Positions 5,843 to 59,120 of a stretch of DNA of 64,000 bases are shown here, one piece after another. The stretch lies in NCBI GenBank assembly GCA_026397315.1, contig JAPLVC010000001.1:149111-213110 (forward strand), in the 5' to 3' direction. The stretch's first letter is position 1. Each line of letters starts with the position of its first letter. Source of the DNA: Candidatus Aenigmatarchaeota archaeon (GTDB taxonomy: Archaea > Aenigmatarchaeota > Aenigmatarchaeia > QMZP01 > QMZT01). Made by a program: the position numbers and the translations under genes. Under the pieces are notes generated by a model. It did not search any database. It had not been told where the DNA came from and was given only the letters and a program-made list of their open reading frames with translations.

Positions 5843-5921
5843 TCTGCTTCATTCGCTTAATAGGTTATTTTTTAAACTGCGAGCTTAAATATTTGAAATA
5901 ACCAGTGCAAAAGGTGACGTC

Positions 5922-6854: not shown

Positions 6855-6955
6855 TATTCGACGATTGGCGTCTTTCAACAATTTAAAATAAGAACCCAAT
6901 TTTTCTATTAAGAATATTGAATATCAAACGGTTGAAAGAGTTCAGGGTGATTTTG

Positions 6956-9150: not shown

Positions 9151-9153
9151 ATT

Positions 9154-10335
9154 ATGTATCTCACTAAAGAACAGGAGAATATGCTTAATGGCGGGCACGG
9201 CGAAGTCGTCGAAAGGCAAATGCGGCTGCTTGTGCGGCTCGGCGAAATATACAAGGCCGACAAGATGATAGACGTCGGCTCCGTGCAGGTCGCCGGCGTT
9301 TCATACAAGTCGATAGGCGACCCGGGTCTCGAGTTCCTCGAGGATATTGCTCACAAAGGAGCGAAGGTCAAGGTCCTGACTTTTTTGAATCCCGCGGGTA
9401 TGGACATGGAGAACTGGAGGGAAATAGGCTTCCCCGAAAGCTTCGCGACGATGCAGAAGAAGGTTATGGACGCGTTCGAGCAGATGGGCATCGTCATGTC
9501 AGCGACATGCACGCCATATCTCGCCGGCAACCTGCCTCGCTTCCGCGAGCACATCGCATGGTCCGAGAGCTCGGCTGTTTCATTTTCCAATTCAGTAATT
9601 GGTGCAAGGACGAACCGTGAAGGCGGACCGTCCGCACTGGCGGCTGCGATATGCGGCTTCACTCCGAACTACGGCCTGCACCTCGACGAGAACAGGAAGC
9701 CCCACATGCTCGTGAAAGTCGACGCGAAGCTGGAATACAACTCGGATTTCGGCGCGCTCGGCTACCACGTAGGCAAGATCGCCGGCAGCAAGATTCCTTA
9801 TTTCACCGGCATAAAGAACGCGAACACCGACAATCTCAAAGCGCTCGGCGCTGCGATGGCGGCCAGCGGGGCTGTCGCTCTCTATCATGCGGAAGGTCTT
9901 ACGCCAGAAGCGAGCACGATGGAAACGAAAGGCCTCGAGATCATAGAGGTCGGCGAGAAGGAGCTGAAAGAAGCGTATGCGAAACTCAACACGGGCAAGG
10001 ACCCGGACCTCGTCGTCGTGGGATGCCCGCACGCATCGCTCAGGGAGATAATAACAATCGCGAAAAAAATCGATGGCAAGCACCTGAAAAAGCCGTTCTG
10101 GATATGCACCTCGCGCGTCATGAAGGACGCTGCGACGCGCATGGGCCTGACGGCAACGATAGAGAAAGCAGGCGGAAAAATCGTGGCTGATACGTGCATG
10201 GTCGTCTCGCCCATCGAGGAAATGGGCTTCAAGACGACCGGAGTCGACTCTGGAAAAGCGGGAAACTATCTTCCCGGCTTCTGCAAGCAGAGCGTCGTGT
10301 TCAAGAACATAGACGATCTGATAAAATCCGGATGA
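9154..10335 (+). CDS. aconitase-X-type dehydratase, large subunit (putative phosphomevalonate dehydratase, DUF521)
   Basis: 393 aa with MYLTKEQENMLNGGHGE...VGSVQVAGVSYK, typical of the AcnX catalytic subunit. It is followed directly by the small swivel subunit. Confidence 0.8.
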   Translation: MYLTKEQENMLNGGHGEVVERQMRLLVRLGEIYKADKMIDVGSVQVAGVSYKSIGDPGLEFLEDIAHKGAKVKVLTFLNPAGMDMENWREIGFPESFATMQKKVMDAFEQMGIVMSATCTPYLAGNLPRFREHIAWSESSAVSFSNSVIGARTNREGGPSALAAAICGFTPNYGLHLDENRKPHMLVKVDAKLEYNSDFGALGYHVGKIAGSKIPYFTGIKNANTDNLKALGAAMAASGAVALYHAEGLTPEASTMETKGLEIIEVGEKELKEAYAKLNTGKDPDLVVVGCPHASLREIITIAKKIDGKHLKKPFWICTSRVMKDAATRMGLTATIEKAGGKIVADTCMVVSPIEEMGFKTTGVDSGKAGNYLPGFCKQSVVFKNIDDLIKSG

Positions 10336-10384
10336 CGACTTGAATTTATGTTCAAGGTCGTCTTTCGAAGGAAATGGTGATGTC

Positions 10385-10783
10385 ATGACGAAAGAAGTTA
10401 TGAAAGGAAGAAGCATTTCGCCTGGGAAAGCGGAAGGCGAAGCGATAGTTTCGAAGACGCCGCTCGGATTCTACGGCGGCATCGATGCAAAAACGGGCAT
10501 CGTCATCGAGAAGGGTCATGAGCTTGAGGGAAAGAACGTCAAAGATAAGATTCTCGTTTTCCCCACAGGCAAGGGCTCGACGGTCGGCTCTTACGTCATA
10601 TATGGACTGAAAAAGAACGGCGTCGCTCCCAAGGCGATAATCAACAAGGAGACGGAAACCATCGTCGCTACGGGCGTGATTCTCGCCGACATACCGTGCG
10701 TCGACCAGATAGACATAGAGAAGCTGAACACGGGCGACAGGCTGAAAGTCGACGCAACGAAGGGAACGGTAGAGCATGCGTGA
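10385..10783 (+). CDS. aconitase-X-type dehydratase, small subunit (DUF126)
   Basis: MTKEVMKGRSISPGKAEGEAIVSK...LVFPTGKGSTVGSYVIYGL. The start is chosen at the ATG after GGTGA. Confidence 0.75.
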   Translation: MTKEVMKGRSISPGKAEGEAIVSKTPLGFYGGIDAKTGIVIEKGHELEGKNVKDKILVFPTGKGSTVGSYVIYGLKKNGVAPKAIINKETETIVATGVILADIPCVDQIDIEKLNTGDRLKVDATKGTVEHA

Positions 10784-11348
10784 CGCTTCAGAAAAGGAAA
10801 GAATCATAGTCGGCATTTCAGGCAGTTCATGCGCCATCCTTGGCGTGCGCTTTCTCGAGGTCGCAAAAAAGCTCGGCTTGGAGACGCATCTCGTCATAAG
10901 CGAGACTGCTGAGAAAATCATAGAGCACGAAACCGGTCGCAAGGTCAGCGACGTCAGAAAGCTCGCGACTAAAGCTTATGGCTACCGCGACCTTTTCGCT
11001 GCGATAGCGTCCGGCTCTTTTCAGACGAAGGGCATGGTCATAATACCGTGCAGCATGAAAACGCTAGCAGGCGTTGCCAGCGGTTATTCCGACAACCTGA
11101 TGTTACGGGCGGCGGACGTTTGTCTTAAAGAACGGCGAAAGCTGGTGCTGGTCGCGCGCGAGACGCCTCTGAGCCTGATACACATCGAGAACATGAAACG
11201 CGTTACGCTCGCTGGAGGCGTAATCCTGCCACCTGTCATGACGCTCTATGCGAAACAGAAAAGCATAGAAGACCTTACGAATCACGTAATCGGCAAGACG
11301 CTCGACGTGCTCGGCATCGACAACAAGGTTTACAACAGGTGGAGCTAG
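10776..11348 (+). CDS. ubiX: flavin prenyltransferase UbiX
   Basis: IIVGISGSS...LVISETAEKII...MVIIPCSMKTLAG...SDNLMLRAADVCLKERRKLVLVARETP. Confidence 0.85.
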   Translation: MRDASEKERIIVGISGSSCAILGVRFLEVAKKLGLETHLVISETAEKIIEHETGRKVSDVRKLATKAYGYRDLFAAIASGSFQTKGMVIIPCSMKTLAGVASGYSDNLMLRAADVCLKERRKLVLVARETPLSLIHIENMKRVTLAGGVILPPVMTLYAKQKSIEDLTNHVIGKTLDVLGIDNKVYNRWS

Positions 11349-11383
11349 AGACGCTTTTTAAGCCAAAAACGGAATTGATATTC

Positions 11384-12163
11384 ATGAAAAACCTGATATT
11401 CGTCAAGCTTGGCGGCTCGCTGATAACCGACAAGTCGAGGCCATACACCGCAAGGCATGATGTAATCAGAAGGCTATGCAGAGAAATACATGAAGCACGC
11501 TCGGACAAGGATTTCCCGCTGCTCGTCGGCCACGGCGGCGGCAGCTTCCCGCACGTATCCGCGAAGAAATACGAGACGCACAAAGGCGCTATTCGCAGCG
11601 ACAGCTGGGAAGGCTTCGCGAAAGTCCAGGACGACGCCGCGCGCCTGAACAGGATAGTCGTCTCGTCGCTCATGGAAGCGGACGAATACGCGGTTTCGAT
11701 ACAGCCGTCAGCATCGTGCTCGGCAAGGAATGATCGTATTATCAAATGGCACATGACGCCCATAGAAGTCGCGCTCTCAAAGGGTCTCATACCCGTGCCG
11801 CACGGCGACGTGTGCGTCGACGATGTGAAAGGATGCTGCATCATATCCACGGAAGAGATACTGGGCTTCCTAGCGAGAAAGCTCAGGCCAGAGCGCATAA
11901 TCATGGCAGGCAAGACCGACGGAGTGCTGGGCCCGCTGGGAGAGACGATAAAGCGGATTGACAGGAAAAATTACGCGGAGATTATCGACTCGCTCTCCTC
12001 GTCGGACGGCGTCGCGGACGTGACCGGCGGCATGGCGCAGAAAGTGAAGATGTCGCTAGCGATGGGTTGCGAAGTCGAAATAATAAACGGCCTCAAACCA
12101 GGCGAGCTGAAAAGAGCGCTGCTCGGGGAGAGAGGATTGGGAACTATAATTAGCGGAAAATGA
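11384..12163 (+). CDS. ipk: isopentenyl phosphate kinase (amino-acid kinase fold)
   Basis: LIFVKLGGSLITDK...LLVGHGGGSFPH. The start was moved to MKNLIF. Confidence 0.85.
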   Translation: MKNLIFVKLGGSLITDKSRPYTARHDVIRRLCREIHEARSDKDFPLLVGHGGGSFPHVSAKKYETHKGAIRSDSWEGFAKVQDDAARLNRIVVSSLMEADEYAVSIQPSASCSARNDRIIKWHMTPIEVALSKGLIPVPHGDVCVDDVKGCCIISTEEILGFLARKLRPERIIMAGKTDGVLGPLGETIKRIDRKNYAEIIDSLSSSDGVADVTGGMAQKVKMSLAMGCEVEIINGLKPGELKRALLGERGLGTIISGK

Positions 12164-13182
12164 TTGTTATGTCTTCTGACAAAAAATCCGTCACCAAGTC
12201 GCGCAAGGACGATCACATACGCATATGTCTCGAGAAAAACGTCGAGTTCGCGAAGTCGAACGGCTTCGACCGCGTCGAGCTGGAGCACAGCGCGCTGCCG
12301 GAGATTGAGAGAAGCGACATCGATTTGTCCACCAGATTCATGGGAAAGAAGTTCCGCTACCCGCTTTTCATAGAGGCGATAACAGGAGGAACGGCACAGG
12401 GCGAGCGCATAAACAAGAATCTCGCTGCTGCGGCAGAAGCGCTTGGAATTGGAATGGGCGTCGGCTCGCAGCGCGCGATGTTGGAGGACGCGAAAGCTAC
12501 GAGAACGTATTCTGTTCGCGACGTCGCGCCCAGCATTTTTCTTCTCGGCAACATAGGCGCGGCGCAACTGAGGAAATACGATACGTCTCGTGTGCTGGCG
12601 CTGGTCGACGCGATAAAGGCCGACGGGCTAGCGATTCATCTCAACGTCGCGCAGGAACTCGCTCAGAAAGAAGGGGATAAATCATGGAAAGGCGTTTTCG
12701 ACGACATAAAGGCGCTGTGCGCCAAATCGAAAGTTCCGATAATCGCTAAAGAAACCGGCTGCGGCATTTCGGGAAAGCTGTCTGAAGCGCTCGTATCAGC
12801 GGGTGTGAAGGCGATAGACATCGCGGGCGCGGGCGGCACGTCGTGGGTCAAGGTCGACAGCCATCGGACTGACGATGATGTGAGTCACATCGAGGAATGG
12901 GGCATCCCGACGGCGCGGGCGCTGAAGGACGTGGCTGGTTCGGTCGAAGTTCCGATAATCGCTTCCGGCGGCATACGCAACGGCGTCGAGGTCGCTAAGG
13001 CGATAGCGATGGGAGCTTCGCTGGTCGGAATGGCGCTGCCGCTGCTGAAACCAGCGACCGAGTCGTCTGAAAGCGTGAGAAAGCACCTGGAAAAAATAAT
13101 TTCACAACTGGAAGACGCGATGTTCCTTGTCGGCGCGAGGAACGTGTCCGAGCTGAAGAAAGTGAAAGTACTTTACGCATGA
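12160..13182 (+). CDS. fni: isopentenyl-diphosphate delta-isomerase, type 2 (FMN-dependent)
   Basis: RKDDHIRICL, PLFIEAITGG, a TIM-barrel FMN-binding C-terminus (IIASGGIRNGVEVAKAIAMGA). Confidence 0.85.
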   Translation: MIVMSSDKKSVTKSRKDDHIRICLEKNVEFAKSNGFDRVELEHSALPEIERSDIDLSTRFMGKKFRYPLFIEAITGGTAQGERINKNLAAAAEALGIGMGVGSQRAMLEDAKATRTYSVRDVAPSIFLLGNIGAAQLRKYDTSRVLALVDAIKADGLAIHLNVAQELAQKEGDKSWKGVFDDIKALCAKSKVPIIAKETGCGISGKLSEALVSAGVKAIDIAGAGGTSWVKVDSHRTDDDVSHIEEWGIPTARALKDVAGSVEVPIIASGGIRNGVEVAKAIAMGASLVGMALPLLKPATESSESVRKHLEKIISQLEDAMFLVGARNVSELKKVKVLYA

Positions 13183-14551: not shown

Positions 14552-14565
14552 CTGCTGGTGTGTTA

Positions 14566-17500
14566 ATGGCGGTCGGGGTAAAGGGTAAAAAACAAAAGTT
14601 TAGCTGCGGGGATGCATTGCTGGAAAAAATCAGGCAATGCGCTCCCATAGTTGACGTTTTCCCCGACATAGCTTATTTTAAGGACCTGGATCACAGGAAC
14701 GTTTTCATAAACAAGGCATTCGAGAAATTTGCCGGCCGCAAAAAGAGCGATATCGAAGGTAAGCGCGACGACGAGATTCTGCCGAAGGAGCTGGCACGCC
14801 AGTGCATGAAAAGCGACGACGCCGTCAGGAACGGGAAGCCCGTGCACACCGATGAGGCGCTCACGGACAAAGACGGCAAGACTGCATTCTTCGACACCAT
14901 GAAATTCCCCCTGAGGGACGGGGAAGGCCGGATAATAGGCCTCATGGGCATAAGCCGCGAAATCACCGAAAAGAAGCGCGATGAGCATGAGCTCAGGGAA
15001 AGCGAGGCTTCATACAGAGCCATAGCCGACAACATCCCGGGCATTGTTTACAGGATTCATCTCGAGGGTGAAAAAAGCTTCACGGAATTTTTCAACGAGA
15101 ACGTGCAGACGCTTGCAGGTTATCCGCCGGAGAAGCTCAGTGGCGGCAGGTGCCCGATGGATCCGCTAATAGTCAGCGAAGACAGAAAAAATGTGATAGA
15201 GACCATCGCAAATGCGATAAAGAAAGGGCAGCCGTTCAAGGTGGAATATCGCATAAAGAACAAGAAAGGCGATATCCGCTACTTCGCGGAAAGGGGCAGG
15301 CCCATATTTGACGAGAAAATGAAAGCCGAGCACATAGACGGCGTCATTTTTGACGTGACCCAGAGCAAAAAGGCCGACGACGCCTTCAGAAACGTCATGG
15401 ACCAATACAAGTATCTCTATGATGAAAGCCCCGCCGTCAACATAATAGTCGGCAACAACGGCAAAATAATGGACATAAACAGGAAATCTGCGCAGGCGAT
15501 AGGATACAAAAAAGAAGAACTCGTAGGCAAAAGTATTTTCGACCTGATGACTGCGTCCGATATAAAGAAAGCACTGACAGTCCTTAAAGACAGTATCATG
15601 AACAAGTACACACCAGAGATGGAGCTGGCTATAAAATCAAAAGACGGTTCTATAAGAAGGCTGCTTCTTTCCGAAGGCGGCACGCCAATTTACGATAAAG
15701 GGAAAGCTGTCGGAGTGCTGGTCACGGGCATGGACATAACGGAACGCAAGAAAGCGGAAGAGTTGACAAGGCAAAACGAGGAAAAATACAGGAGTATAAT
15801 CGAGCTGGCTCCGGATGGCATAATCTCCGTGAGCCTGAAAGGAACGGTGACAGCGTGCAATTCGGCCTTCGAAAAACTCACCGGATATTCAAAGGAGGAG
15901 ATTGTAGGCAAGCATTTCACCAGTCTCCCGACCATCAACAAGAAGGACATGCCGAGCTACATAAAATTGTTCACTTCCATCATCAGGGGTAAAATTCCGG
16001 AGTCATTCAAGTTCGAATGGAAACACAAAAACGGCTCCTTGCACATGGGCGAAATCCGCGTTGGCCTGATGAAAAGCGGTAACAAAATAACCGGAATGCA
16101 GGCATTCATAAGTGACATAACAGAAAGATTGATGGTAGAAAAAAGGGCTAAGGAGGACGAAGATAAATACAAGTTCCTGGTCGACAGTATGCAGGAGATA
16201 GCAATTATTCTCAGCAAAACCGGAACGATACTGTTCGCCAACAGGTCTGCCCTTGAAACGCTGGGCTATACTGAAGAGGAGGTTATAGGCAAATCCATCG
16301 TTTCTTTCCTCACGAAAGGCTCGCTCAAGAAAGCCTTATATGCGCTCGCGCAGGAATTCCTCGGCAAACATCAGGAGGAGATGGAAGTCGAGGTCAAAAA
16401 CAAAAAAAGCGAGATAAGGACTTTGCTGATTGCCGAGTCATCAAACCCCATTCACAAAGACGGGAAAATGATCGGGATTCTGGTGAACGCCCGCGACATC
16501 ACTGAGCAGAAAAAGACCAATGAATTGCGCAGGGAAAGCGGGGAACAATTCAGAAAGCTCTTCAACGAGATGCCAGACGCCGTCATCATCCTTGACAAGA
16601 AGGGGACGTTGCTTGAAATGAGCAAAGAAGCTGAAAAGATAAGCGGCTATCCGAGGAATGAATTGATAGGCAGAAACATCTTCGCCACACGTATCCTTGA
16701 CATGAAGACGAAGGCGCTCACTATCAGAAAACTGGCCCTGCATTTTTCCGGCGAAAGTGTTCTGCCATTCGAAGTCAAAATCTACAGGAAAGATGGTGGC
16801 ACCGTCCCGCTTGAAATAAAGCCGCAGATGATTGATTACATGGGAAAGGAGGCTGACCTCATAGCTCTCAGGGACCTCACCGAACGCAAGATAGCTGAGG
16901 CTGCAGTCAGCGAGAACGAGGAAAGGTATAGGATACAGTTCGAAGAGGCGCTGGACACTATTGTAATAGCCAACGCGAAAACAGGCATAATAGTTGACTG
17001 CAACCGCGCAGCAACACAGTTGGTCGGGAGAGACAAGTCGGAGCTTATCGGGCAGCATCAAAGAATACTCCATCCGCCAGAAGATACCAAAGGTCAGTTC
17101 AGCGAGACATTCAAAAAACACATAAGCGTTGCCAAAGGCCAACCATTGGAAGCGCGGATTATCACCAAAAGCGGGGAAATAAAGTTCGTTACCATAAAGG
17201 CCAACCTGATTGAAATGAGGGGTGAAAAATTAATTCAGGGAATATTCAGGGACATTACCGAATGGAAAAGAGTGGAAAACGAGTTGAGAAAGAGTGATGA
17301 ACGCTTCAGGCAGATCACCGAAAATGCTTACGAGTGGGTATGGGAAGTTGACACCAACGGTGTGTATACCTATTCGAACACCATAATTGAAAGGATACTT
17401 GGCTACACATCTGATGAGCTTGTTGGTAAGGTACATTTTTACGATTTATTTGCTCCCGATGTGAAAGAGCAGTTAAAGAAAGCGGCCCTTGAAACCTTCG

Positions 17501-18183
17501 CCAAAAAACAACCTATCAGGGGGTTTATAAACCAGAACCTGCACAAGAACGGCAATATGATCATACTTGAAACGAATTGTGCGCCGATCCTTGATGAAAA
17601 AGGCCGCCTCTTGGGCTACCGTGGCGCTGATACGGACATCACCGAACGCAAAAAGACGGAAGATATTATCAAAGAAAGCGAAAGCAGATACAAGCTGATG
17701 GCCGAGCAAACAGGGCAGGTAATTTATGATTATGAGATTGCATCCGGCGCCATTAAATGGTCCGGGGCGATAATGAATATCACCGGTTACACGCCAGAAG
17801 GGTTGCAAAAAATGGGTATAAAAGAATGGGGGGAATCAATCCATCCGGATGATTCCAAGAATGTCTCGGAACTCCTAGACAAAGCAATTAAGCAATGTAC
17901 GAAATTCGACAGTGAATACAGATTCATGCGTAAGGATGGCAGTTACGTGTACGTCGAGGATAGGGGCATCGTGCTAAAAGATGCGAAAGGTAAGCCATAC
18001 CGCATGCTCGGTACCATGAAAGACATTACTTACAGGAAAAAGGCGGATGATGAAATAAAAAATAGGACAGAGGAACTCGAGCGCTTCAACCGTCTCGCCG
18101 TCGGCAGGGAGTTGAAAATGATCGAGCTTAAAAACAGGATTGAGGATCTGGAAAAAAAGCTCAGGGAAAATAAGGATGCATGA
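14566..18183 (+). CDS. multi-PAS/PAC sensor protein without a recognisable output domain
   Basis: About 1200 aa of repeated PAS-PAC units (repeated DITERKKAEE / DITEQKK junctions). The C-terminus is a coiled coil ending ELERFNRLAVGRELKMIELKNRIEDLEKKL. No HisKA or HATPase domain is seen. Confidence 0.8.
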   Translation: MAVGVKGKKQKFSCGDALLEKIRQCAPIVDVFPDIAYFKDLDHRNVFINKAFEKFAGRKKSDIEGKRDDEILPKELARQCMKSDDAVRNGKPVHTDEALTDKDGKTAFFDTMKFPLRDGEGRIIGLMGISREITEKKRDEHELRESEASYRAIADNIPGIVYRIHLEGEKSFTEFFNENVQTLAGYPPEKLSGGRCPMDPLIVSEDRKNVIETIANAIKKGQPFKVEYRIKNKKGDIRYFAERGRPIFDEKMKAEHIDGVIFDVTQSKKADDAFRNVMDQYKYLYDESPAVNIIVGNNGKIMDINRKSAQAIGYKKEELVGKSIFDLMTASDIKKALTVLKDSIMNKYTPEMELAIKSKDGSIRRLLLSEGGTPIYDKGKAVGVLVTGMDITERKKAEELTRQNEEKYRSIIELAPDGIISVSLKGTVTACNSAFEKLTGYSKEEIVGKHFTSLPTINKKDMPSYIKLFTSIIRGKIPESFKFEWKHKNGSLHMGEIRVGLMKSGNKITGMQAFISDITERLMVEKRAKEDEDKYKFLVDSMQEIAIILSKTGTILFANRSALETLGYTEEEVIGKSIVSFLTKGSLKKALYALAQEFLGKHQEEMEVEVKNKKSEIRTLLIAESSNPIHKDGKMIGILVNARDITEQKKTNELRRESGEQFRKLFNEMPDAVIILDKKGTLLEMSKEAEKISGYPRNELIGRNIFATRILDMKTKALTIRKLALHFSGESVLPFEVKIYRKDGGTVPLEIKPQMIDYMGKEADLIALRDLTERKIAEAAVSENEERYRIQFEEALDTIVIANAKTGIIVDCNRAATQLVGRDKSELIGQHQRILHPPEDTKGQFSETFKKHISVAKGQPLEARIITKSGEIKFVTIKANLIEMRGEKLIQGIFRDITEWKRVENELRKSDERFRQITENAYEWVWEVDTNGVYTYSNTIIERILGYTSDELVGKVHFYDLFAPDVKEQLKKAALETFAKKQPIRGFINQNLHKNGNMIILETNCAPILDEKGRLLGYRGADTDITERKKTEDIIKESESRYKLMAEQTGQVIYDYEIASGAIKWSGAIMNITGYTPEGLQKMGIKEWGESIHPDDSKNVSELLDKAIKQCTKFDSEYRFMRKDGSYVYVEDRGIVLKDAKGKPYRMLGTMKDITYRKKADDEIKNRTEELERFNRLAVGRELKMIELKNRIEDLEKKLRENKDA

Positions 18184-18186
18184 ATA

Positions 18187-19944
18187 ATGTTAAACTTTTA
18201 CTCGCTGCTGCCGTTTTCGGCGTTGCTGACAAACCTGGTTTTCGGGATATTCATACTCTACATAGACCCGAAGAGCAGGCTCAACAGGCTATACAGCCTT
18301 TTCACGCTTTCCTTTGCCTTCTGGGCCTTGGGCGATTTCATGGTTTTCATGGCATACGACCAGGGAAGCTCGCTTTTCTGGGCAAAAGCCGCCTCGGTCG
18401 GCTCTACACTTTCTGCAGCTTTCGCCATAAACTTCTTCGTGCTTCTGACGAAGAACAGGCTGGCAAACAGCAAGCTCATGCTGCTTTTTTACGTGCCTGC
18501 GGCGGCGTTCTCTTTGCTATCGCTCGGCACCGACCTTATAACAAAGGGTACGAAGCCCGTTCCGTGGGGCCTGTTGCAGTTAAGGGGACCGCTTTACATC
18601 CCGATGACCCTTTTCATTGTGGCGTGCATGGTGGCGAGCATAATCCTTTGCTACATGTATTATCGCCGCACGGAAAAACAGGATGAAAGAAAACAGATGA
18701 GGATCATGATCATTGGCACGTCAATACCGCTTTTCGGCGGCATCGTGACGCAGATTGTCCCGATCATAATGGGCTTCGAAATGATTCCGCTGTCTTCGAC
18801 GCTCTCGATAATCATAGTGGTGGCCGCCGCGCTCGGCGTCATGCGCTACAGGCTCATGACACCCGTGTCTTTCAGCATCCGCAAGAAGATAATAGTTTCA
18901 ATCATGGTGGCGAGCATAATACCGCTCCTCATGCTGAGTCACGTTTCTATATCGAGCATCAGCTCTCTCGGTTTGATGCACACCGAGCACATGGACACCA
19001 TAAGCAACTTTTCCATAAACGAAACTGTTCATTCGCTGGAAGCGCTTGGCGCCGAAATGGTAAAGCAGAAGGCATTCGACGTCTCGAACCAGATAGGTAT
19101 TTTCATCAGTAAGTCGCCCCAGATGACCGAAGAACAGATGAAAAACAACGCTGAGCTTGCATCGATAGCTGTCCAGCGCGTCGACAAAACTGGTTACACT
19201 GCCGTGCATAACAACAAAGGCATCAACCTGTTCCATTCCAATCCAAATATCATAGGCTCAGATCTTACGAAGCTGAATTTGACGGGCTTCAGGGAGATAG
19301 TGCAAAAAAGCCTGAGTCAGGAGGCGTATGGCTATTACGACTGGAAGGAAAGCGACGGCAGCATAAGGCAAAAATACATGCACTGCGTTCCCGTAAAGAT
19401 GACAGGCTTGGTAGTGTGCGCAACAACATACATAGACGAGTTTTCCGAGCCTTCGGATGCTGCGATGAAAAGACTGAACAATGCCACAAAGCAACACATA
19501 CTTGATGAAAAAGATGTCCAGGCCGCGCTCCTCGTCACCATAGGCGCGATGCTAATCCCGATGGTGGCGATAATGATAATTATTACGTACCTGCTCACCG
19601 GAGCCCTTTCCAAACCCATACTAAAGCTCACAGATGCGATGAAAAAGATAAGCGGTGGCAACCTCGACGTGAAAATAGAAGTGAAAGAAGGCGACGAGAT
19701 AGGCCAGCTTGCTTCATCTTTCAAACAGATGCTTGAGGAACTGAAAACTTCAAAAATCAAAATAGAAGAGCATAGCAAGACGCTGGAGAAAGATGTCGAG
19801 GATAGGACTAGTCAGCTCGAGGATAAAGTGAGCGAGCTGGAGAGGTTCAGCAAGCTGGTCATAGGCAGGGAGCTTAAGATGGTGGATCTCAAGAAAAAAT
19901 TAAAGGAAGTTGAGGATAAGCTGAAGAGCAAGGAGAATAAATAA
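18187..19944 (+). CDS. membrane sensor: N-terminal multi-TM module, extracytoplasmic domain, HAMP, C-terminal coiled coil; no kinase domain
   Basis: Eight predicted TM helices, a ~190-aa extracytoplasmic domain, a further TM helix, a HAMP domain (ILKLTDAMKKISGGNLDVKIEVKEGDEIGQLASSF) and a coiled coil ending ELERFSKLVIGRELKMVDLKKKL. Confidence 0.7.
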   Translation: MLNFYSLLPFSALLTNLVFGIFILYIDPKSRLNRLYSLFTLSFAFWALGDFMVFMAYDQGSSLFWAKAASVGSTLSAAFAINFFVLLTKNRLANSKLMLLFYVPAAAFSLLSLGTDLITKGTKPVPWGLLQLRGPLYIPMTLFIVACMVASIILCYMYYRRTEKQDERKQMRIMIIGTSIPLFGGIVTQIVPIIMGFEMIPLSSTLSIIIVVAAALGVMRYRLMTPVSFSIRKKIIVSIMVASIIPLLMLSHVSISSISSLGLMHTEHMDTISNFSINETVHSLEALGAEMVKQKAFDVSNQIGIFISKSPQMTEEQMKNNAELASIAVQRVDKTGYTAVHNNKGINLFHSNPNIIGSDLTKLNLTGFREIVQKSLSQEAYGYYDWKESDGSIRQKYMHCVPVKMTGLVVCATTYIDEFSEPSDAAMKRLNNATKQHILDEKDVQAALLVTIGAMLIPMVAIMIIITYLLTGALSKPILKLTDAMKKISGGNLDVKIEVKEGDEIGQLASSFKQMLEELKTSKIKIEEHSKTLEKDVEDRTSQLEDKVSELERFSKLVIGRELKMVDLKKKLKEVEDKLKSKENK

Positions 19945-19966
19945 TAATTTTATGGAGGGTGATAAT

Positions 19967-20746
19967 ATGAATAAATTTTTGATTTCGGCGCTGTGCATTT
20001 TGCTTGTCATCGGATTTTCGGGATGCACGCAGACAAACTTGAATGGAAGCGGCTCATCTCTGTTAAAATTGAAAGAGCCGGGCAAACTTATAATAGGCAC
20101 GAATTTGCCGTACGAACCAATGGAGTTCTACGACGCTTCGGGAAATATAGTTGGCATTGACGCGGATGTTGCAAAAGAAATCGCTTCGCAACTTGGGCTG
20201 GAGCTGGAAATAAGAAATGTTGACTGGGACAAGCTGTTCGAACAAGTGAAATCAGGCGATCTGGATATTATAATTTCATCTATATCTATAACAAATGAAA
20301 GGCAAAAGGAATATCTTTTTAGTGCGCCATATTTCAACGCAGGCCAGGTGGTTATCACCAAAAAGGGCAATACCGACATCAAATTCCCGGAGGACCTCAA
20401 AAACAAGAAAGTGAGCGCCCAGAAAGATACAACAAGCGCTGAAGAGGCTGCAAAATACTCGAACAGCTCTATAGTGTACGAAAACTCAGATTACGAAAAA
20501 ACTGTCGCTGACCTTAAAAATGGAAATTTAGACGCAATTGTCATGGATTATGTTGCCGGCATCATGCTGGTGAAGAACGACCAGTCACTTAAAATAGCTG
20601 TGGAACCTTTCACCCAGGAGTTTTACGGCATAGCCACGCAGCTAGGCAACACGGCACTCATGAATGAAGTGAGCAGAGTGCTCAGAAATATGAAGGAGAC
20701 AGGGAAGCTGGAAGAAATAAAAAATAAGTGGCTTAGCGAGACGTGA
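19967..20746 (+). CDS. periplasmic solute-binding lipoprotein (family-3 SBP)
   Basis: Signal peptide with lipobox (LVIGFSGC), then SBP_bac_3-like blocks (GTNLPYEPMEF...GIDADVAKEIA...DIIISSISIT). The start follows a GGAGGGTGA Shine-Dalgarno. Confidence 0.75.
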   Translation: MNKFLISALCILLVIGFSGCTQTNLNGSGSSLLKLKEPGKLIIGTNLPYEPMEFYDASGNIVGIDADVAKEIASQLGLELEIRNVDWDKLFEQVKSGDLDIIISSISITNERQKEYLFSAPYFNAGQVVITKKGNTDIKFPEDLKNKKVSAQKDTTSAEEAAKYSNSSIVYENSDYEKTVADLKNGNLDAIVMDYVAGIMLVKNDQSLKIAVEPFTQEFYGIATQLGNTALMNEVSRVLRNMKETGKLEEIKNKWLSET

Positions 20747-20801
20747 AATGTTTGGATCTGGCAGTGCTTTGAAAAATAACAAAGATAAGTGGCTCGGGTA
20801 A

Positions 20802-22493
20802 ATGAAAATAAACATATCGCTGAAGATAATCGGGGTAGTTTTTTTGCTTTTTTTACTCGTTTTTATAATCATCGCTTACAACAACATCATAATCTATGAG
20901 AACGATGTGACAGGCTACTTCATAGAAAAAGCTAAAGCTATTGCATATTCCATCGAAGCTGGCATAAAGAACAGGGAAACCCTGAGCAAAAAGGATGAGA
21001 TGTTGTCCAGCATCCATAAAATCATGTGGCTTAATTCTGAAATTGTAGATATAACATACGTCACAAGTAGCGAAAGCGGGCTGGTAAATTACATATCAAA
21101 CGACCCCGAAAGAAACGGTGTCGAGCCCGAACCTGAAAATTATGAAGCGTTCGAAAAGGATATCGTGATAAGCAAGATTTACACTCGGGGATATTCAGCC
21201 ATGCTTAAAATCGTATCACCTCTTCACATCTCTGGGCAGGTTGTCGGCACCGTGCAGTTGGATTTTACCATGGAAAGCATTAATGGTAAAATAACAGCTG
21301 TCAGAAACTCCCTCATCGTGGGTTATCTTATGTTAATGATCACTTCCGCTGTTCTGTTGTTCTTTTTGCTGAGAATACTAGTCATAAAACCTATTCAAAA
21401 AATAAACAAAGGCGTTGAATCTGTATCGTCTGGCAAGCTGGACTACAGCGTCGATATAAAATCCAATGACGAGATAGGCAATTTATCAAAAGCTTTCAAT
21501 AGGATGGTAAACGATCTTAAGCAATCCAACGACCAGATAAAAAGGCACGAGCATGATCTCGAAGAAAAGGTAAGCGAAAGGACCAAGGATCTTGACTCCA
21601 AAGTGGGCGAGCTCACGGATACGAAGACGGCGATACTCAACATGATGGAGGACATGGACGATGCCAACAGGAACCTTATGACGATGCAGGACGAGCTCAG
21701 GAACAGCCTCAAGGAACTGAAGGAAAGCGACATCAAGAAGGACGAATTCATATCGATAGCGGCGCACGAGCTGAAGACGCCACTGACATCGATACACGGT
21801 TTCTCTCAGCTGATGCAGAACAAGGACGTCATAGAAAACAAGGAAAGGAGGGGAAAATATCTGGGTATAATGGAGCATGAGACCACGCGCCTGGCAAAGC
21901 TCGTGACCGACATCCTCGACCTTTCAAGAATTGATCTTGGAACGCTTAAAATGGCGATAGAAGAGGTCGATGTTTCGTCGCTTATAGACGACGTGAGCAA
22001 GGAACTCAACATACAGATGAAGTCCCATGGTCTCGAGTCTGAATACATCATAGAAAAGGACCTGAAAATGATGACGGACATGGAGAGGCTTACACAGATA
22101 GTGATAAATCTCATAAACAACTCCATCAAATACACGCCGAAAGGCAAGATAACCGTGAAGGCATGGAAAGACGGCGGCGACTTCCATTTCATGGTCAAGG
22201 ACACGGGTATAGGCATACCGAAGGACAAGCAGCACCACATCTTCCAGAGGTTCTATCAGGTCGATTCTTCATACACCAGGTCAGCTGGAGGCGTCGGCCT
22301 CGGCCTTTCTCTATGCAAGGAGTTCGTGAACGTCCTCGGGGGCAAGATATGGTTCGTGAGCCAGGAAGGCAAGGGAAGCGAGTTCCACGTCACTCTGCCC
22401 ATGAAGAAAACTGTCGCGCCCGGTATATTTGACGTGAAAGCAAAGGCGGCAGAAATCCTCAAGAAGTCTGAAAAAATCACGAAAGGAAAATAA
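20802..22493 (+). CDS. sensor histidine kinase (TM-periplasmic-TM-HAMP-HisKA-HATPase)
   Basis: H-box AAHELKTPLTSI and N, G1 and G2 boxes (DTGIGIPKDKQHHIFQRFYQ...GGVGLGLSLCKEFV). Confidence 0.85.
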   Translation: MKINISLKIIGVVFLLFLLVFIIIAYNNIIIYENDVTGYFIEKAKAIAYSIEAGIKNRETLSKKDEMLSSIHKIMWLNSEIVDITYVTSSESGLVNYISNDPERNGVEPEPENYEAFEKDIVISKIYTRGYSAMLKIVSPLHISGQVVGTVQLDFTMESINGKITAVRNSLIVGYLMLMITSAVLLFFLLRILVIKPIQKINKGVESVSSGKLDYSVDIKSNDEIGNLSKAFNRMVNDLKQSNDQIKRHEHDLEEKVSERTKDLDSKVGELTDTKTAILNMMEDMDDANRNLMTMQDELRNSLKELKESDIKKDEFISIAAHELKTPLTSIHGFSQLMQNKDVIENKERRGKYLGIMEHETTRLAKLVTDILDLSRIDLGTLKMAIEEVDVSSLIDDVSKELNIQMKSHGLESEYIIEKDLKMMTDMERLTQIVINLINNSIKYTPKGKITVKAWKDGGDFHFMVKDTGIGIPKDKQHHIFQRFYQVDSSYTRSAGGVGLGLSLCKEFVNVLGGKIWFVSQEGKGSEFHVTLPMKKTVAPGIFDVKAKAAEILKKSEKITKGK

Positions 22494-34468: not shown

Positions 34469-36271
34469 TCAAACTTCCACGACGTTCAGCTTCGGGTAGA
34501 CACCGAGCGATTTCAGCTCGTCCATCGTCAGCTTGAACGCGTACGAAGTGCTGACCCACAGGATTTTCGAATCCTTGCACACGGGACAGTAAGTCTTGTT
34601 CTTCGCCTTGTCGTTTATCGCTATAAGGCCGCACGACTGGCAGATGGGAAGCGACGTTTCGTCGGAGTTGAAGCGTTCCTTGAGTGTAAGCGCTGCGCCG
34701 TGCCCTACCAGGCACTGCTGCTCCATCTCGCCGAGACGAAGCCCGCCGCGCTTCGAGCGGCCCTCGGTCGGCTGTCTCGTAAGAAGCGTTACCGGTCCTT
34801 TCGAGCGTGCGTGTATCTTGTCCGCGACCATGTGGTCCAGCTTCATGTAGTATGCTATTCCCGTGAAAATCATAACCTCGAATTTCTTGCCCGTGCGTCC
34901 GTCGTATAACGTTTCTTTCCCGTCGTCGCGGAAGCCGAGCTTCTTCAGCTCTTTCCTTATGTTCTCTTCCCTGGTTCCGGAGAAAGCGGACGAGTCGATT
35001 TTTTCACCAGCGATTGAGCCGTATTTGCCCGAAAGCAGCTCAAGCAGCTGGCTGACGGTCATACGAGATGGAATGCCGTGCGGGTTGAACAATAAGTCAG
35101 GCACGATGCCTTCCTTAGTGAATGGCATGTCCTCCTGCGGCACGAGCAACGCCGTTACGCCTTTCTGCCCGTGCCTCGTGGCGAACTTGTCTCCAAGCTC
35201 CGGTATGCGCTCGTCCCTTGTCCTTATCTTGAAAAGCTGCTCACCGCTCACCGTCTCGCTTATCAGCACGCGATCGATTATGCCGCGCTCGCCGTAGCGT
35301 ATCGTGACCGACGATTCTCGCTTGTTTTCAATATCAGTCGTGAAATCGCCACCCGTCAGGAAACGGAGCGGTGAAGTCTTGCTTACAAGGACCGAATCCG
35401 ATTCGACGTTGGTCTCCGGGTTGATTACGCCGTCTTCAGGGATGTCCTTGTAGGCTTCCTCGCCCCTGTATCCCTTTATGCCCGGCTCGGGGATCGCTAT
35501 AACGTCTTCCTGGCCGCCCCAGTAGCGTTTTCGAATGGTTTCATAAGTCCTGAAGTAGAATGAGCGGAACATGCCGCGATCGACGGAACCTTTGTTGAGC
35601 ACGACTGCGTCGTTCATGTTGAAGCCGTCCCAGCACATGACCGCGACCACGATATTCTGGCCGTATGGATGCTGCTTGAGAATCTTGTCCGTCGCCGTAT
35701 CTACGAGCGGCATTTGCGCGTAAGTGAGGACGTTGAACTTCGTGTCCGTCCTGACCTGGAAGTTGTCTATGGGCGCGCCTATCGCCTGTCCGACCATCTT
35801 CGCTCCGTAGTTGACGCGGTCGCCACGGTTGTATTCAGGGAATGGCGTAAGGCTTGCTGAAATGCCAAGTATGAGAAGCGGGTTTATCTCCGCGTGCGTG
35901 TGCTCTTTGTTGACTTTTTCTATGTCGATTGCTATGTAACTGTTTTCTTCCTCTTCAGCGTCTACGTATTCGATTATGCCGTGCTTGACCAGGAAGCTCC
36001 AGTTTATCTTGCCGGCCTTGAGCTTTTCGATGTGTTCCTTCGTAAGCTTCGGCTTGCCATCCTCCACGACGACGAGCGGCCTTCTGGCGCGTCCCGAATC
36101 GGTGTTTATCCTTATCTCGCCGAACTCGGTGTGATAAGAAACATTCATCTGGTCGGGCAGTATGCCGTGCCTTCTCTTCTTCCTCAAATCTTCGACTACA
36201 TCCTCCGGCTTGTCCGTCGTGCCGACGAAATCGCCGTTGAAATATATGTCAGCTTCTGATTTGCCTTTCAT
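34469..36271 (-). CDS. rpoB1: DNA-directed RNA polymerase subunit B' (C-terminal part of split B)
   Basis: 600 aa with a C-terminal Zn motif CQSCG...CPVC and conserved subunit-2 blocks. Confidence 0.9.
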   Translation of the reverse strand: MKGKSEADIYFNGDFVGTTDKPEDVVEDLRKKRRHGILPDQMNVSYHTEFGEIRINTDSGRARRPLVVVEDGKPKLTKEHIEKLKAGKINWSFLVKHGIIEYVDAEEEENSYIAIDIEKVNKEHTHAEINPLLILGISASLTPFPEYNRGDRVNYGAKMVGQAIGAPIDNFQVRTDTKFNVLTYAQMPLVDTATDKILKQHPYGQNIVVAVMCWDGFNMNDAVVLNKGSVDRGMFRSFYFRTYETIRKRYWGGQEDVIAIPEPGIKGYRGEEAYKDIPEDGVINPETNVESDSVLVSKTSPLRFLTGGDFTTDIENKRESSVTIRYGERGIIDRVLISETVSGEQLFKIRTRDERIPELGDKFATRHGQKGVTALLVPQEDMPFTKEGIVPDLLFNPHGIPSRMTVSQLLELLSGKYGSIAGEKIDSSAFSGTREENIRKELKKLGFRDDGKETLYDGRTGKKFEVMIFTGIAYYMKLDHMVADKIHARSKGPVTLLTRQPTEGRSKRGGLRLGEMEQQCLVGHGAALTLKERFNSDETSLPICQSCGLIAINDKAKNKTYCPVCKDSKILWVSTSYAFKLTMDELKSLGVYPKLNVVEV

Positions 36272-38177: not shown

Positions 38178-38323
38178 TGAGCCCGGCGGGAATCGAACCC
38201 GCGACCCCCAGATGTCTTTCCGCACCTTGTTCTGTCATTGGCTTTCGCCAGAAAGCGATAACCTCAGCATACTTTTATCGAACAGATAAAAGTCTGGTGC
38301 TCTACCGATTGAGCTACAGGCCC
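38178..38323 (-). tRNA. tRNA-Lys (anticodon UUU) with a ~73-nt intron at the canonical 37/38 position
   Basis: Acceptor GGGCCUG/CGGGCUC (two G-U pairs), D-arm GCUC-AAUCGGUA-GAGC, anticodon stem CCAGA/UCUGG, loop CUUUUA+A, T-arm GCGGG-UUCGAUU-CCCGC, discriminator A. Confidence 0.75.
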
Positions 38324-38412
38324 ACGCAGCGACAGACGCAGTTTGCGACTGCGTCATACGCTTGCAGCGACAGACGACCTGAAATATAAATTCAAGTCGT
38401 CAATTGCTGCGA

Positions 38413-38523
38413 CGCCCTGGCCGGGAGTTTCAGACGGACGCAGATAAAATCTGCGTCATGCGCCTTTGAACCCGGGTCCTCGAAGTGACAGTCCGAGATG
38501 ATAGGCCACTACACTACCAGGGC
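38413..38523 (-). tRNA. tRNA-Asp (anticodon GUC) with a 38-nt intron at the non-canonical 59/60 position in the T-loop
   Basis: Acceptor GCCCUGG/CCAGGGC, anticodon stem UCGGA/UUCGA, loop CUGUCAC, T-stem CCGGG / CCCGG with the loop UUCAAA|intron|U, discriminator G. Confidence 0.75.
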
Positions 38524-38630
38524 AGAGTTTTCTGGTTGATAATATTTCTAATCACGTCCAATATTTATAAATCTGAAAAAAGGCAGGAAAAACACTAAAC
38601 GGAAAAACGAAGCAAAAAAGATTAACAAGA

Positions 38631-38746
38631 GGTGAGCAGCTATCTGAGGTTCCCCCTTGTTCAGGAGTACTTTCCAGACCGTCGGAAAGTTTAACTTCCG
38701 TGTTCGAAATGGGAACGGGTGAACCTTTCCACTTTGGCCGCTCAAT
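38631..38746 (-). rRNA. rrf: 5S ribosomal RNA
   Basis: The minus strand has ..CACCCGUUCCCAUUUCGAACACGGAAGUUAAAC.., matching the universally conserved 5S loop and helix region. Helix I pairs 5' UGAGCGGC with 3' GCUGCUCA. Length is about 116 nt. Confidence 0.7.
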
Positions 38747-38995
38747 ACTTCTATTGCCGGCTACTATTTAAAAGCTTTGCGTCCTGAAAAAAATAGGCCC
38801 AGCCTAGAATTTAATCAATATGAGCATTATAGCCATAACTATGCCAGCCAGATAAATCCTGCGCTCGAGTCTTGCAAAGTTAATGCTCATGTAAAATCAC
38901 AAATGTGAAGTATACTATGAAGAGATAAGTTTTTAAACGTGTTTACCGCCCGGATCGTCCAAAAAACATGGTTTCAGTATTAAAAAAAAGAAGTA

Positions 38996-39189
38996 TCCCC
39001 CGGGTGAGATTTCCATACGCGAAAGCTGCTGGTTTTCGCTTAAGCCTTTTCAACAAAAGGCTTATTTTGAACTCACAACCTATCGGTTTCTGAAGCGACT
39101 GCGAATGACCAACACACTCGTAAAACCGAGTTTAAGTCACCGTGCGAGAGTCTACAGCCGATCGCTCCACCAGATTGAGCTACCGAGGG
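38996..39189 (-). tRNA. tRNA-Tyr (anticodon GUA, C1-G72) with two introns (~64 nt at 37/38 and ~57 nt at 59/60)
   Basis: Acceptor CCCUCGG/CCGGGGG, D-arm GCUC..GAGC, anticodon stem AUCGG/CCGAU, loop CUGUAG|intron|A, T-stem GUGAG/CUCAC perfect, T-loop UUCAAA|intron|U, discriminator A. C1-G72 is the archaeal/eukaryal Tyr identity pair. Confidence 0.7.
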
Positions 39190-39208
39190 ATGCACGCAAT
39201 ACGCGTAA

Positions 39209-39218
39209 TATTATATAA
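39209..39218 (-). promoter_or_regulatory. TATA-box-like element upstream of tRNA-Tyr
   Basis: The minus strand reads TTTATATAAT, centred about 25 nt upstream of the tRNA 5' end. Confidence 0.4.
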
Positions 39219-39405
39219 ACGTCTCCAGAATTTAAATATTGGCCAGACCACGGTCATTATCAGTCGGAGTATAAGAACGGTGGAATCCTTTATCTAAAAA
39301 TGTTCTTTTTTAGTTTTTTGTTGTCTTTTTGAATAGCACTTGAACCATTAATTGCATTTTGTGTTTCGTGCGCCCATCTATCAGGTTATCAGATGCTTTA
39401 TGATA

Positions 39406-57869: not shown

Positions 57870-59120
57870 ATGAAACCGCGCATGTCCGTATACATCGAGA
57901 CTTACGGCTGCACTGCCAGCCAGGCGCGCTCTGAAATAATGGAAGGTGCACTGGCGGCGAATCAGATGGCTATGGTCAAGCATCCTGCCAGAGCGGATGT
58001 TATTCTCCTAAACACGTGCATAGTCAAAACGCCCACGGAAAACAGGATACGTGACAGGATAAAATCATTGGTCAAGAAATATCCGCACAAAACCCTTGTC
58101 ATTGCTGGTTGCGCAACCGATGTCGGGTTTTTCAGAAACATCGCACCCAACGCGCTTTTCCTGTCCTCGCATAAGCCGGAAGAAGTGACTAAACTACTTC
58201 TGAAAAAGACTAATGAAAAAACTGGTAAAATGAGAAAGAACCCGCTGGTCGGGATAACAGAGATATCAAGCGGGTGCCTGGGAAAATGCTCGTATTGCAT
58301 CGTCAGGCTGGCCAGGGGCGAGCTAAAGTCGAAAAGCCCGGACGAAATAATCGCTGAAGTTGAGCGCGCCCTGGCGGATGGCTGCATGGAGATATGGCTC
58401 ACTAGCCAGGACAACTCATGTTACGGCTTCGATATCGAAAGCAATCTTGCCGGGTTGCTCGAGAAAATAGCGAAACTGGACGGCAAATTCAGAATCCGCG
58501 TGGGCATGATGAACCCGTCGCACGCAAAACCGATTCTCAAGCGGCTACTGAAAGCTTACGCCAGCAAAAAGGTCTACAAATTTGTCCATATTCCGGTCCA
58601 GTCGGGCTCGGATAAAATCCTGAAGTCCATGGGTAGGGGTTACAGCGCTGGCGAATTCGAGAAGCTGGTGGACGCTTTCAGGCATGCTTTCCCGCTAGTC
58701 ACGCTCTCCACAGACGTCATAGTCGGTTTCCCCGGAGAGACGGGCGGGAATTTTGAGAAGACATTGAAACTCATAGAGAGGATAAAGCCCGACATCGTCA
58801 ACGTATCTAAATTCGGCGCGCGACCAGGGACGATTGCTGCCCGCATGCGACAGCTAGACAACAGGATTATCAAGGAGCGTTCAGCAGCGATGGCGTCGCT
58901 CGTCAGGAGAATCGGCGCGGAGGCGAATAAAAAATGGCTGGGCAGGACGTGCGAGATATTCGTGACGGAGAAAGGCCGCGACAAAAAACAGTTCACCGGC
59001 AGAAACGAATCATACAAGCCCGTCATAGTCGAAGGAAAGCGACTGCTTGGAAAAGTGTTAAAAGTAAAAATTACAAAATGCGGTCAGACTTTCCTGGCCG
59101 CAAAGATCAACCAAAGCTAG
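57870..59120 (+). CDS. MiaB-like tRNA methylthiotransferase (archaeal MtaB-type): MTTase N-domain, radical SAM, TRAM
   Basis: An N-terminal Cys triad (YGCTASQ..NTCIVK..AGCA), radical SAM CLGKCSYC and a C-terminal TRAM domain. Confidence 0.85.
   Translation: MKPRMSVYIETYGCTASQARSEIMEGALAANQMAMVKHPARADVILLNTCIVKTPTENRIRDRIKSLVKKYPHKTLVIAGCATDVGFFRNIAPNALFLSSHKPEEVTKLLLKKTNEKTGKMRKNPLVGITEISSGCLGKCSYCIVRLARGELKSKSPDEIIAEVERALADGCMEIWLTSQDNSCYGFDIESNLAGLLEKIAKLDGKFRIRVGMMNPSHAKPILKRLLKAYASKKVYKFVHIPVQSGSDKILKSMGRGYSAGEFEKLVDAFRHAFPLVTLSTDVIVGFPGETGGNFEKTLKLIERIKPDIVNVSKFGARPGTIAARMRQLDNRIIKERSAAMASLVRRIGAEANKKWLGRTCEIFVTEKGRDKKQFTGRNESYKPVIVEGKRLLGKVLKVKITKCGQTFLAAKINQS

Follow-up and report, generated by a model that had tools for sequence, protein, structure and literature searches.

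Archaeal tRNA genes disrupted by non-canonical or multiple introns of the bulge-helix-bulge (BHB) type, including introns at the 59/60 site, together with relaxed splicing motifs and intron transposition, are known from Thermoproteales, Thaumarchaeota and ARMAN-2 (PMC3239211, PMC4033280, PMC4090602, PMC8450103). Our full-text literature search found no paper describing such introns in Aenigmarchaeota. Here we describe a cluster of tRNA-Tyr, 5S rRNA, tRNA-Asp and tRNA-Lys genes in a 64-kb stretch of a Candidatus Aenigmatarchaeota genome (contig JAPLVC010000001.1; the whole stretch of 64,000 nucleotides is called the window, and all positions follow its numbering), in which every tRNA gene carries one or two inserts. 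These are very probably functional tRNA genes interrupted by archaeal BHB introns. The kind of gene disruption is a known one; what is new here is the lineage, the rapid turnover of the introns, their link to a hairpin repeat and a very high intron density.

In ARMAN-2 (Ca. Micrarchaeum), pre-tRNA-Cys(GCA) has an intron at 59/60, and pre-tRNA-Pro(GGG) has introns at both 53/54 and 59/60 (Fujishima et al. 2011, PMC3239211); the 59/60 intron of pre-tRNA-Cys, with its hBH motif, is cleaved in vitro by the epsilon2 splicing endonuclease (EndA) of this organism (PMC3239211). Our locus shares with ARMAN-2 the 59/60 site in the T-loop, the use of the T stem as the outer helix, a relaxed motif of the hBH type, the occurrence of canonical and non-canonical introns side by side and membership of the DPANN superphylum. 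However, it belongs to another phylum, its introns are 38 to 56 nt long with structured interiors (13 nt in ARMAN-2), and cleavage, obtained there in vitro with the epsilon2 enzyme, is here predicted from sequence. In Thermoproteales, tRNA genes with multiple introns and the transposition of introns on a large scale are documented (Sugahara 2008; Fujishima 2010; for reviews see PMC4033280, PMC4090602 and PMC8450103), and the likeness extends to several introns per gene, many non-canonical sites, rapid gain and loss, and similar introns across tRNAs and positions, the last seen here between genomes. Those organisms are Crenarchaeota with an (alpha-beta)2 EndA, whereas here the host belongs to DPANN, part of the intron pool is common to a hairpin repeat found outside introns, and relatives reach four introns in one gene. 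A population of Caldiarchaeum subterraneum has a heterogeneous tRNA-Thr(GGU) locus, a variation connected with a 1.8-kb element carrying a recombinase and with gene splitting (PMC3293823). As in that case, close relatives differ here in intron content at one tRNA locus, but what differs is whether BHB introns of 38 to 56 nt are precisely present or absent, and no recombinase lies close by. All exons are collinear and the genes span 111 to 194 nt, which sets them apart from split or permuted tRNA genes.

The Lys, Asp, 5S and Tyr genes all lie on the minus strand, and the limits of the cluster (38178 to 39189) correspond exactly to the 3' end of Lys and the 5' end of Tyr. Its genes and introns are as follows.

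38996-39189, minus strand: tRNA-Tyr(GUA) gene, exons 39152-39189, 39066-39087 and 38996-39009; cloverleaf once both inserts are removed
39088-39151, minus strand: Tyr intron 1, 64 nt, canonical 37/38 site, relaxed BHB
39010-39065, minus strand: Tyr intron 2, 56 nt, T-loop 59/60 site, relaxed hBH
38631-38745, minus strand: stand-alone 5S rRNA gene (Rfam RF00001, 68 bits against a gathering score of 38, model positions 1-120)
38413-38523, minus strand: tRNA-Asp(GUC) gene, exons 38465-38523 and 38413-38426; cloverleaf once the insert is removed
38427-38464, minus strand: Asp intron, 38 nt, T-loop 59/60 site, relaxed BHB
38178-38323, minus strand: tRNA-Lys(UUU) gene, exons 38287-38323 and 38178-38213; Rfam tRNA score 59.3 bits
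38214-38286, minus strand: Lys intron, 73 nt, 37/38 site, strict hBHBh'

Removal of the inserts in silico restores regular tRNAs. Without 38427-38464, ARAGORN recognizes a 73-nt tRNA-Asp(GUC) cloverleaf, and without 39088-39151 and 39010-39065, a 74-nt tRNA-Tyr(GUA) cloverleaf; when only the T-loop insert is taken out of the Tyr gene, it recognizes a tRNA-Tyr interrupted at position 37 by an intron of 64 nt. For the Lys gene, ARAGORN with introns allowed reports tRNA-Lys(ttt) with an intron i(38,73), 73 nt long, and the Rfam alignment skips about 74 nt after position 37, in agreement with the original prediction, made from the letters of this stretch, of about 73 nt at 37/38. That prediction had also placed 38 nt at 59/60 of the Asp T-loop, a stand-alone 5S gene between Asp and Tyr, and two introns in Tyr: the Asp insert holds, the 5S gene is matched over its full length by Rfam, and the Tyr sites and the length of about 64 nt at 37/38 stand, while the T-loop insert, given as about 57 nt, is in fact 56 nt long. 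In unspliced form, the Asp gene reaches 19 bits in Rfam against a gathering score of 29, the Tyr gene has no Rfam match even at E = 10, and ARAGORN in its default mode finds no tRNA anywhere in the window. In relaxed mode it reports a "tRNA-Asp" at 34527-34715, a false call located inside rpoB'. Weak matches of a permissive Rfam scan (mir-322, HPnc0260, Plastid-ycf2 and others) were discarded as chance; they are below the gathering scores and overlap tRNA or spacer hairpins.

The genes rpoH, rpoB'', rpoB', rpoA' and rpoA'' are found immediately downstream of the cluster (Pfam scan of open reading frames [ORFs]). A back-translated search with the neighboring RpoB'' retrieved 54 related loci at 63 to 98% identity, labeled L001 and so on, and the closest genomes were metagenome-assembled genomes (MAGs) of Candidatus Aenigmatarchaeota (lineage Archaea; Nanobdellati, i.e., DPANN). 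RpoB'' places the host in this phylum, which bears out the "DPANN-like" lineage suggested beforehand. The closest relatives share the Tyr, 5S, Asp, Lys gene order upstream of rpoH.

The borders of the inserts are proven by these relatives. In L001, with RpoB'' 98.4% identical and flanks ~92% identical at the nucleotide level, the Asp gene is intron-less and identical to the window exons at 73 of 73 positions; it reads GGGTTCAAATCCCGG, exactly the sequence predicted for the ligated exons, with an Rfam score of 58.1 bits versus 19 bits for the unspliced window gene. The orthologous Asp intron is present in L002 (34 of 38 nucleotides identical). Orthologues of the window tRNA-Tyr occur in L001, L002, L004 and L006, and all four keep the 37/38 intron, but in L002 and L004 the T-loop insert is absent and the T-loop reads GTGAGTTCAAATCTCAC, with a score of 50.1 bits for the L002 gene. 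Such equality of intron-less orthologues with the predicted ligation products is far beyond chance. Exact borders, exon conservation and intron presence or absence are direct observations on these genomes, as are the inserts themselves and the BHB geometry described below. An assembly or chimera artefact, for which we saw no indication, has a negligible probability: an independent Logan assembly (L081, from SRR20698647) is 100% identical to the window over 11,820 nt, which rules out an assembly artefact, and homologous introns occur in several independent MAGs.

Among close relatives, exons are identical at 70 to 73 of 73 positions (the Tyr values of L002 and L004 are underestimates, MAFFT having misaligned the 3' exon of intron-less Tyr genes), the Asp-Lys spacer at only 26 to 41 of 90, and the introns show intermediate values. 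The exons, nearly invariant next to a diverged spacer, are thus under purifying selection, and the genes are not pseudogenes.

Junctions were scored against the canonical arrangement: an outer and an inner helix, two bulges of 3 nt each and, between these, a central helix of 4 bp that stops 2 nt short of the 5' cut. Folded one by one, as the original prediction had proposed, they fit BHB geometry, strictly in Lys and in relaxed form at the other three (Asp, Tyr 59/60 and Tyr 37/38). The Lys junction has a fully paired central helix (CUUU/AAAG, 4/4), bulges UA↓U and AC↓A, a 4-bp inner helix and a 5-bp outer helix. At the Tyr 59/60 junction the T stem provides a 5-bp outer helix, the central helix UUCA/UGGA is again complete (4/4) and is flanked by bulges AA↓A and AA↓U, and the interior of the intron contains two hairpins in a three-way junction. 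For the Tyr T arm, the fold of lowest energy coincides with the hBH form (z = -3.3), and it includes the hairpin UAAGCCUUUU/AAAAGGCUUA that had been noticed inside this intron beforehand. The run of A in the Tyr T-loop allows three registers, of which 59/60 alone gives a 4/4 helix (1 to 2 of 4 at 57/58 and 58/59). The Asp junction likewise has the T stem as a 5-bp outer helix, a central helix UUCA/UGAA (4/4) and bulges AA↓G and AC↓U; its inner helix GCG/CGU is offset by one bulged C, and the core of the intron is a 9-bp hairpin with a triloop. The Tyr 37/38 junction combines a 5-bp outer helix with a central helix CUG/CAG plus a U35.U mismatch (3/4) and a clean 3' bulge AAA. Bulges of 3 nt lie at the predicted cuts in all four introns.

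The Asp and Tyr T-loop introns belong to the 59/60 class: the insert separates nucleotides 59 and 60, the outer helix is provided by the T stem, and the intron 3' end pairs with nucleotides 54-57. That 59/60 is a recurrent intron site can be understood because the T arm, with a 5-bp stem and a 7-nt loop, is shaped like the anticodon arm, making 59/60 the twin of 37/38. In the T-loop introns of Lys, Asp and Tyr genes from 55 Aenigmatarchaeota loci (n = 35), the central helix was complete (4/4) in 25 and 3/4 in 8, compared with 4/4 at 4 of 405 slid control positions (1%); this census relied on scoring anchored in the T arm, which mis-anchors two or three loci (L044, L054; the L006 intron is really at 58/59). 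Automatic borders from dynamic-programming alignment to the mature tRNAs of the window were wrong for divergent relatives, and T-arm anchoring was used instead. A target-site duplication at the TTCGAA palindrome was also considered as the source of the T-loop BHB and rejected, as the UUCA of Asp and Tyr is matched by its complements UGAA and UGGA, not by repeats.

In the precursor, the interrupted arm, which is the anticodon arm at 37/38 and the T arm at 59/60, would extend into a 4-bp helix formed by loop nucleotides 1-4 and the intron 3' end, flanked by the two 3-nt bulges. EndA would then cleave both strands, each at a point two nucleotides 3' of the helix, and the exons would be joined by a ligase of the RtcB type. 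These enzymes, and their tolerance of relaxed motifs, we infer. Relaxed motifs at three of the four junctions fit the need for a broad-specificity endonuclease, which the literature attaches to such motifs, and the locus leads us to predict that the lineage has one. In DPANN, variants of EndA (alpha4 enzymes that have an additional L3 loop) correlate with heavier disruption of tRNAs (PMC5829648), in a study in which Aenigmarchaeota were not analyzed.

Several observations weigh against splicing at BHB motifs. Neither EndA (PF01974, PF02778) nor RtcB was found in the 64-kb window by a Pfam search covering all but a handful of its ~66 long ORFs, and tblastn with the M. jannaschii EndA (a query identical to PDB 1A79) gave no match in the window or in 81 loci. 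The minimum-energy folds of Lys, Asp and Tyr 37/38 are not the BHB conformer, which lies 6.5, 3.3 and 2.5 kcal/mol higher, respectively; in Lys, a lower-energy alternative pairs the intron with positions 28-37. At Tyr 37/38 the central helix contains the U.U mismatch and there is hardly any in-register inner helix, while the Asp inner helix is one nucleotide out of register. The absence of EndA from the window and the merely relaxed BHB at three junctions might point to a route other than EndA, i.e., group I or group II self-splicing, trimming by other RNases or retention of the inserts as expansion segments. Self-splicing group I and II introns have a ribozyme core of several hundred nucleotides. 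The inserts, at 38 to 73 nt, are too short for ribozyme introns and match no Rfam intron family; if retained, 38 to 56 nt in the T-loop would destroy the contacts between T-loop and D-loop; and the conserved 4-bp helix with 3-nt bulges is the signature of EndA. We consider such a route extremely unlikely.

Between close relatives the introns come and go at a fast rate. The RpoB'' tree has the topology ((window, L001), (L002, L006)), (L004, L005). In each of the three sister pairs, one member carries the Asp 59/60 intron (the window, L002 and L004) and the other lacks it (L001, L006 and L005), a distribution that calls for no fewer than two precise losses or else for repeated gains. The Tyr T-loop intron is shared by the window and L001 and missing from L002 and L004, while L006 carries an unrelated intron at 58/59 in its place. 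In that gene (L006 tRNA-Tyr, 4564-4767), 58/59 is the sole site at which the T-loop intron fits a BHB, its helix being one position out of the usual register (GUUC/GAAC), which points to an independent gain at a neighboring site. All these differences occur between species whose RpoB'' is 91 to 98% identical, and the locus offers a clean natural series for the gain and precise loss of BHB introns, with the same gene found with and without its intron in close relatives.

Introns at different sites are also related in sequence. In comparisons between genomes, the window Tyr 59/60 intron matched the Asp 37/38 intron of L015 over 32 nt at 91% identity (E = 5e-5 by blastn within the intron set and E = 0.0017 by nhmmer over 0.9 Mb) and, more weakly, the Lys 59/60 intron of L005 (E = 0.013). 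Different tRNAs carry the same intron modules, at their 37/38, 59/60 or D-loop sites. After Thermoproteales, Aenigmatarchaeota could perhaps represent a second lineage in which a pool of BHB introns is actively turning over, although we put this forward only tentatively. The hairpin repeat and the four-intron Lys genes described below point the same way.

Part of this pool is shared with a lineage-specific hairpin repeat of ~39 nt, consisting of GCG-WWU-GAC, a stem of ~9 bp with a triloop, and GUC-UNU-CG, often followed by AAA. The repeat was searched for with R1, a covariance model built from 19 copies; these had been picked for perfect stems, so that the pairing statistics are circular, although the stem sequences do differ. 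Strong R1 matches were confined to the window and its closest clade (L001-L014), and the top match was the Asp intron (44.2 bits). Three copies in the window are the following.

38427-38465, minus strand: hairpin-repeat copy forming the core of the Asp intron (R1)
38325-38363, minus strand: hairpin-repeat copy before Lys (R1, 39 bits), ending just upstream of the Lys 5' end
5820-5858, minus strand: hairpin-repeat copy at the start of a small ferredoxin-like mRNA (R1/regular expression)

Copies of the repeat form the core of Asp and Lys T-loop introns, lie nested in other introns and in one another (L001, L008 and L014) or are found 13 to 16 nt upstream of mature tRNA 5' ends and, in relatives, just 3' of 5S genes. 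The hairpin alone does not form a BHB. It was also considered as a K-turn, but there are no G.A pairs opposite the 3-nt loop. This distribution suggests that some introns may arise from the hairpin repeat; the cores common to introns and to a free-standing repeat would, if this is true, give a concrete source for new introns.

The same data could be read as a selfish hairpin, similar to a miniature inverted-repeat transposable element (MITE), the copies of which have inactivated the tRNA genes, leaving pseudogenes here and functional copies elsewhere. The membership of the Asp insert core in a repeat family seen also in spacers, leaders and a 5' untranslated region is what such an element would leave behind, as are the nested copies. 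However, the exons are nearly invariant while the spacers diverge, the same genes are kept upstream of rpoH across the phylum, and each insert sits exactly at a BHB site with its 3' end complementary to loop nucleotides 1-4, unlike random insertion. Inactivation by a selfish repeat is, in view of this, very unlikely, and interruption of working genes by BHB introns is the preferred reading.

The spacer between Asp and Lys contains one of the repeat copies and a second hairpin of a different kind.

38324-38412, minus strand: Asp-Lys spacer, 89 nt, two stable hairpins (fold z = -6.6)
38373-38401, minus strand: first spacer hairpin, GACGACTTGAA-TTTATAT-TTCAGGTCGTC, a longer palindrome with a TATA-like loop

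The palindromic hairpin with the TTTATAT loop is also found upstream of tRNAs in L002, L004, L009 and L014. It is located ~26 to 29 nt upstream of the tRNA 5' end in L004 and L009 and 64 nt from Lys in the window, where the hairpin-repeat copy lies between it and Lys. Its role may thus be that of a dyad-symmetric promoter rather than of an RNA element. Inspection of the spacer by hand found no BHB motifs.

The canonical Lys(UUU) intron and its flanks are conserved phylum-wide (28 loci, the window and 27 related ones). Its order is UAAAAG, 4 nt, a YUGA-like 4-mer, a variable hairpin and RAUGACAGA. The intron pairs with tRNA positions 28, 29 and 31-37 in 25 to 28 of the 28 loci, with covariation at position 31 (U-A31/C-G31). 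The hairpin is always flanked by the 4-mer on the 5' side and by RAUGA on the 3' side, and the fifth pair from the box is C32. Haloferax and further Euryarchaeota have a box C/D guide RNA inside the intron of pre-tRNA-Trp (d'Orval 2001, cited after the review PMC11408192). Similarly, the Lys intron has a stretch complementary to its own anticodon arm directly 5' of CUGA, the hairpin and RAUGA, as in a D'/C'-like half; but it has one box pair and no terminal C/D pair, so that this is a resemblance and not membership. By analogy, the intron might be a box C/D-like guide acting in cis for 2'-O-methylation of C32. Our confidence in this idea is low because half of the loci have a degenerate D'-like box (only 14 of 28 to 29 show YUGA as the 4-mer, without a second box pair) and the RAUGACA stretch doubles as the BHB inner helix. 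The pairing may be merely an alternative fold of the precursor.

The Lys genes of nine relatives (L008, L011, L013, L030, L031, L044, L047, L049 and L054) have four inserts each, in the D-loop and at 30/31, 37/38 and 59/60. These genes sit upstream of rpoH, and ARAGORN recognizes tRNA-Lys after removal of the inserts, although the splicing was guided by alignment to reference tRNAs and is biased towards this outcome. The D-loop junction of L054, examined by hand, is a strict BHB with a central helix GGCU/GGCU and an inner helix GGGG/CCCC. Three introns is the published maximum per archaeal tRNA gene (PMC4033280, PMC4090602, PMC8450103), and our literature search turned up no report of an archaeal tRNA gene with four.

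A fourth intron-bearing tRNA gene of the window, tRNA-Phe, was missing from the original prediction. It is located far from the cluster and on the other strand.

385-510, plus strand: tRNA-Phe(GAA) gene with two non-canonical introns; clean ARAGORN cloverleaf after their removal
389-403, plus strand: Phe intron 1, 15 nt at 4/5; 4/4 BHB central helix that uses the 5' leader
431-467, plus strand: Phe intron 2, 37 nt at 30/31; 4/4 BHB central helix

In unspliced form it reaches only 29.7 bits in Rfam, and relaxed ARAGORN miscalls it as Met. All four tRNA genes of the window are interrupted, by six introns in total, four of them non-canonical. Standard tRNA finders miss such genes (in the window, default ARAGORN recovered none and Rfam two of four), and annotation, completeness and codon-capacity estimates of MAGs from Aenigmatarchaeota and similar DPANN will under-count tRNAs unless multiple non-canonical introns are searched for.

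CCA is not encoded in these tRNA genes. Within and around the cluster we read by eye several TATA-like boxes, which we infer to be promoters, and there is a short ORF between tRNA-Tyr and the 5S gene.

39207-39219, minus strand: TATA-like box TTTATATAATATT upstream of Tyr, 18-30 nt from its 5' end
38924-38938, minus strand: TATA-like box of the 28-codon ORF
38804-38890, minus strand: 28-codon ORF MSINFARLERRIYLAGIVMAIMLILIKF, between tRNA-Tyr and 5S, with its own TATA-like box
38763-38778, minus strand: TATA-like box preceding the 5S gene
38560-38573, minus strand: TATA-like box upstream of Asp

Oligo-T runs follow Tyr, 5S (T6) and Lys on the 3' side, and Asp has none. The cluster appears to consist of several transcription units (Tyr, the 28-codon ORF, 5S and Asp), with Lys possibly co-transcribed with Asp or driven by a TATA-like element in the spacer. 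The 28-codon ORF is kept in L001, L002, L006 and L004, with changes that are mostly silent or conservative, and its product is probably a small membrane protein.

Elsewhere in the window, two genes for tRNA modification were identified. Trm1 (PF02005, the m2,2G26 methyltransferase) is found at ~560-1620 on the plus strand, directly downstream of tRNA-Phe, with its longest ORF overlapping the tRNA, and a MiaB-like radical-SAM methylthiotransferase (UPF0004, Radical_SAM and TRAM) at 57870-59120 on the same strand. The regions 5922-13182 and 14560-22493 are rich in metabolism and signaling genes for a DPANN genome. They include a modified mevalonate pathway set (GHMP kinase, UbiD-like protein, AcnX, an amino-acid-kinase-family protein and an FMN-dependent dehydrogenase) and, among the signaling genes, a 1207-aa multi-PAS protein, two HAMP-domain sensors, the second with histidine-kinase domains, and several KaiC-like ATPases.

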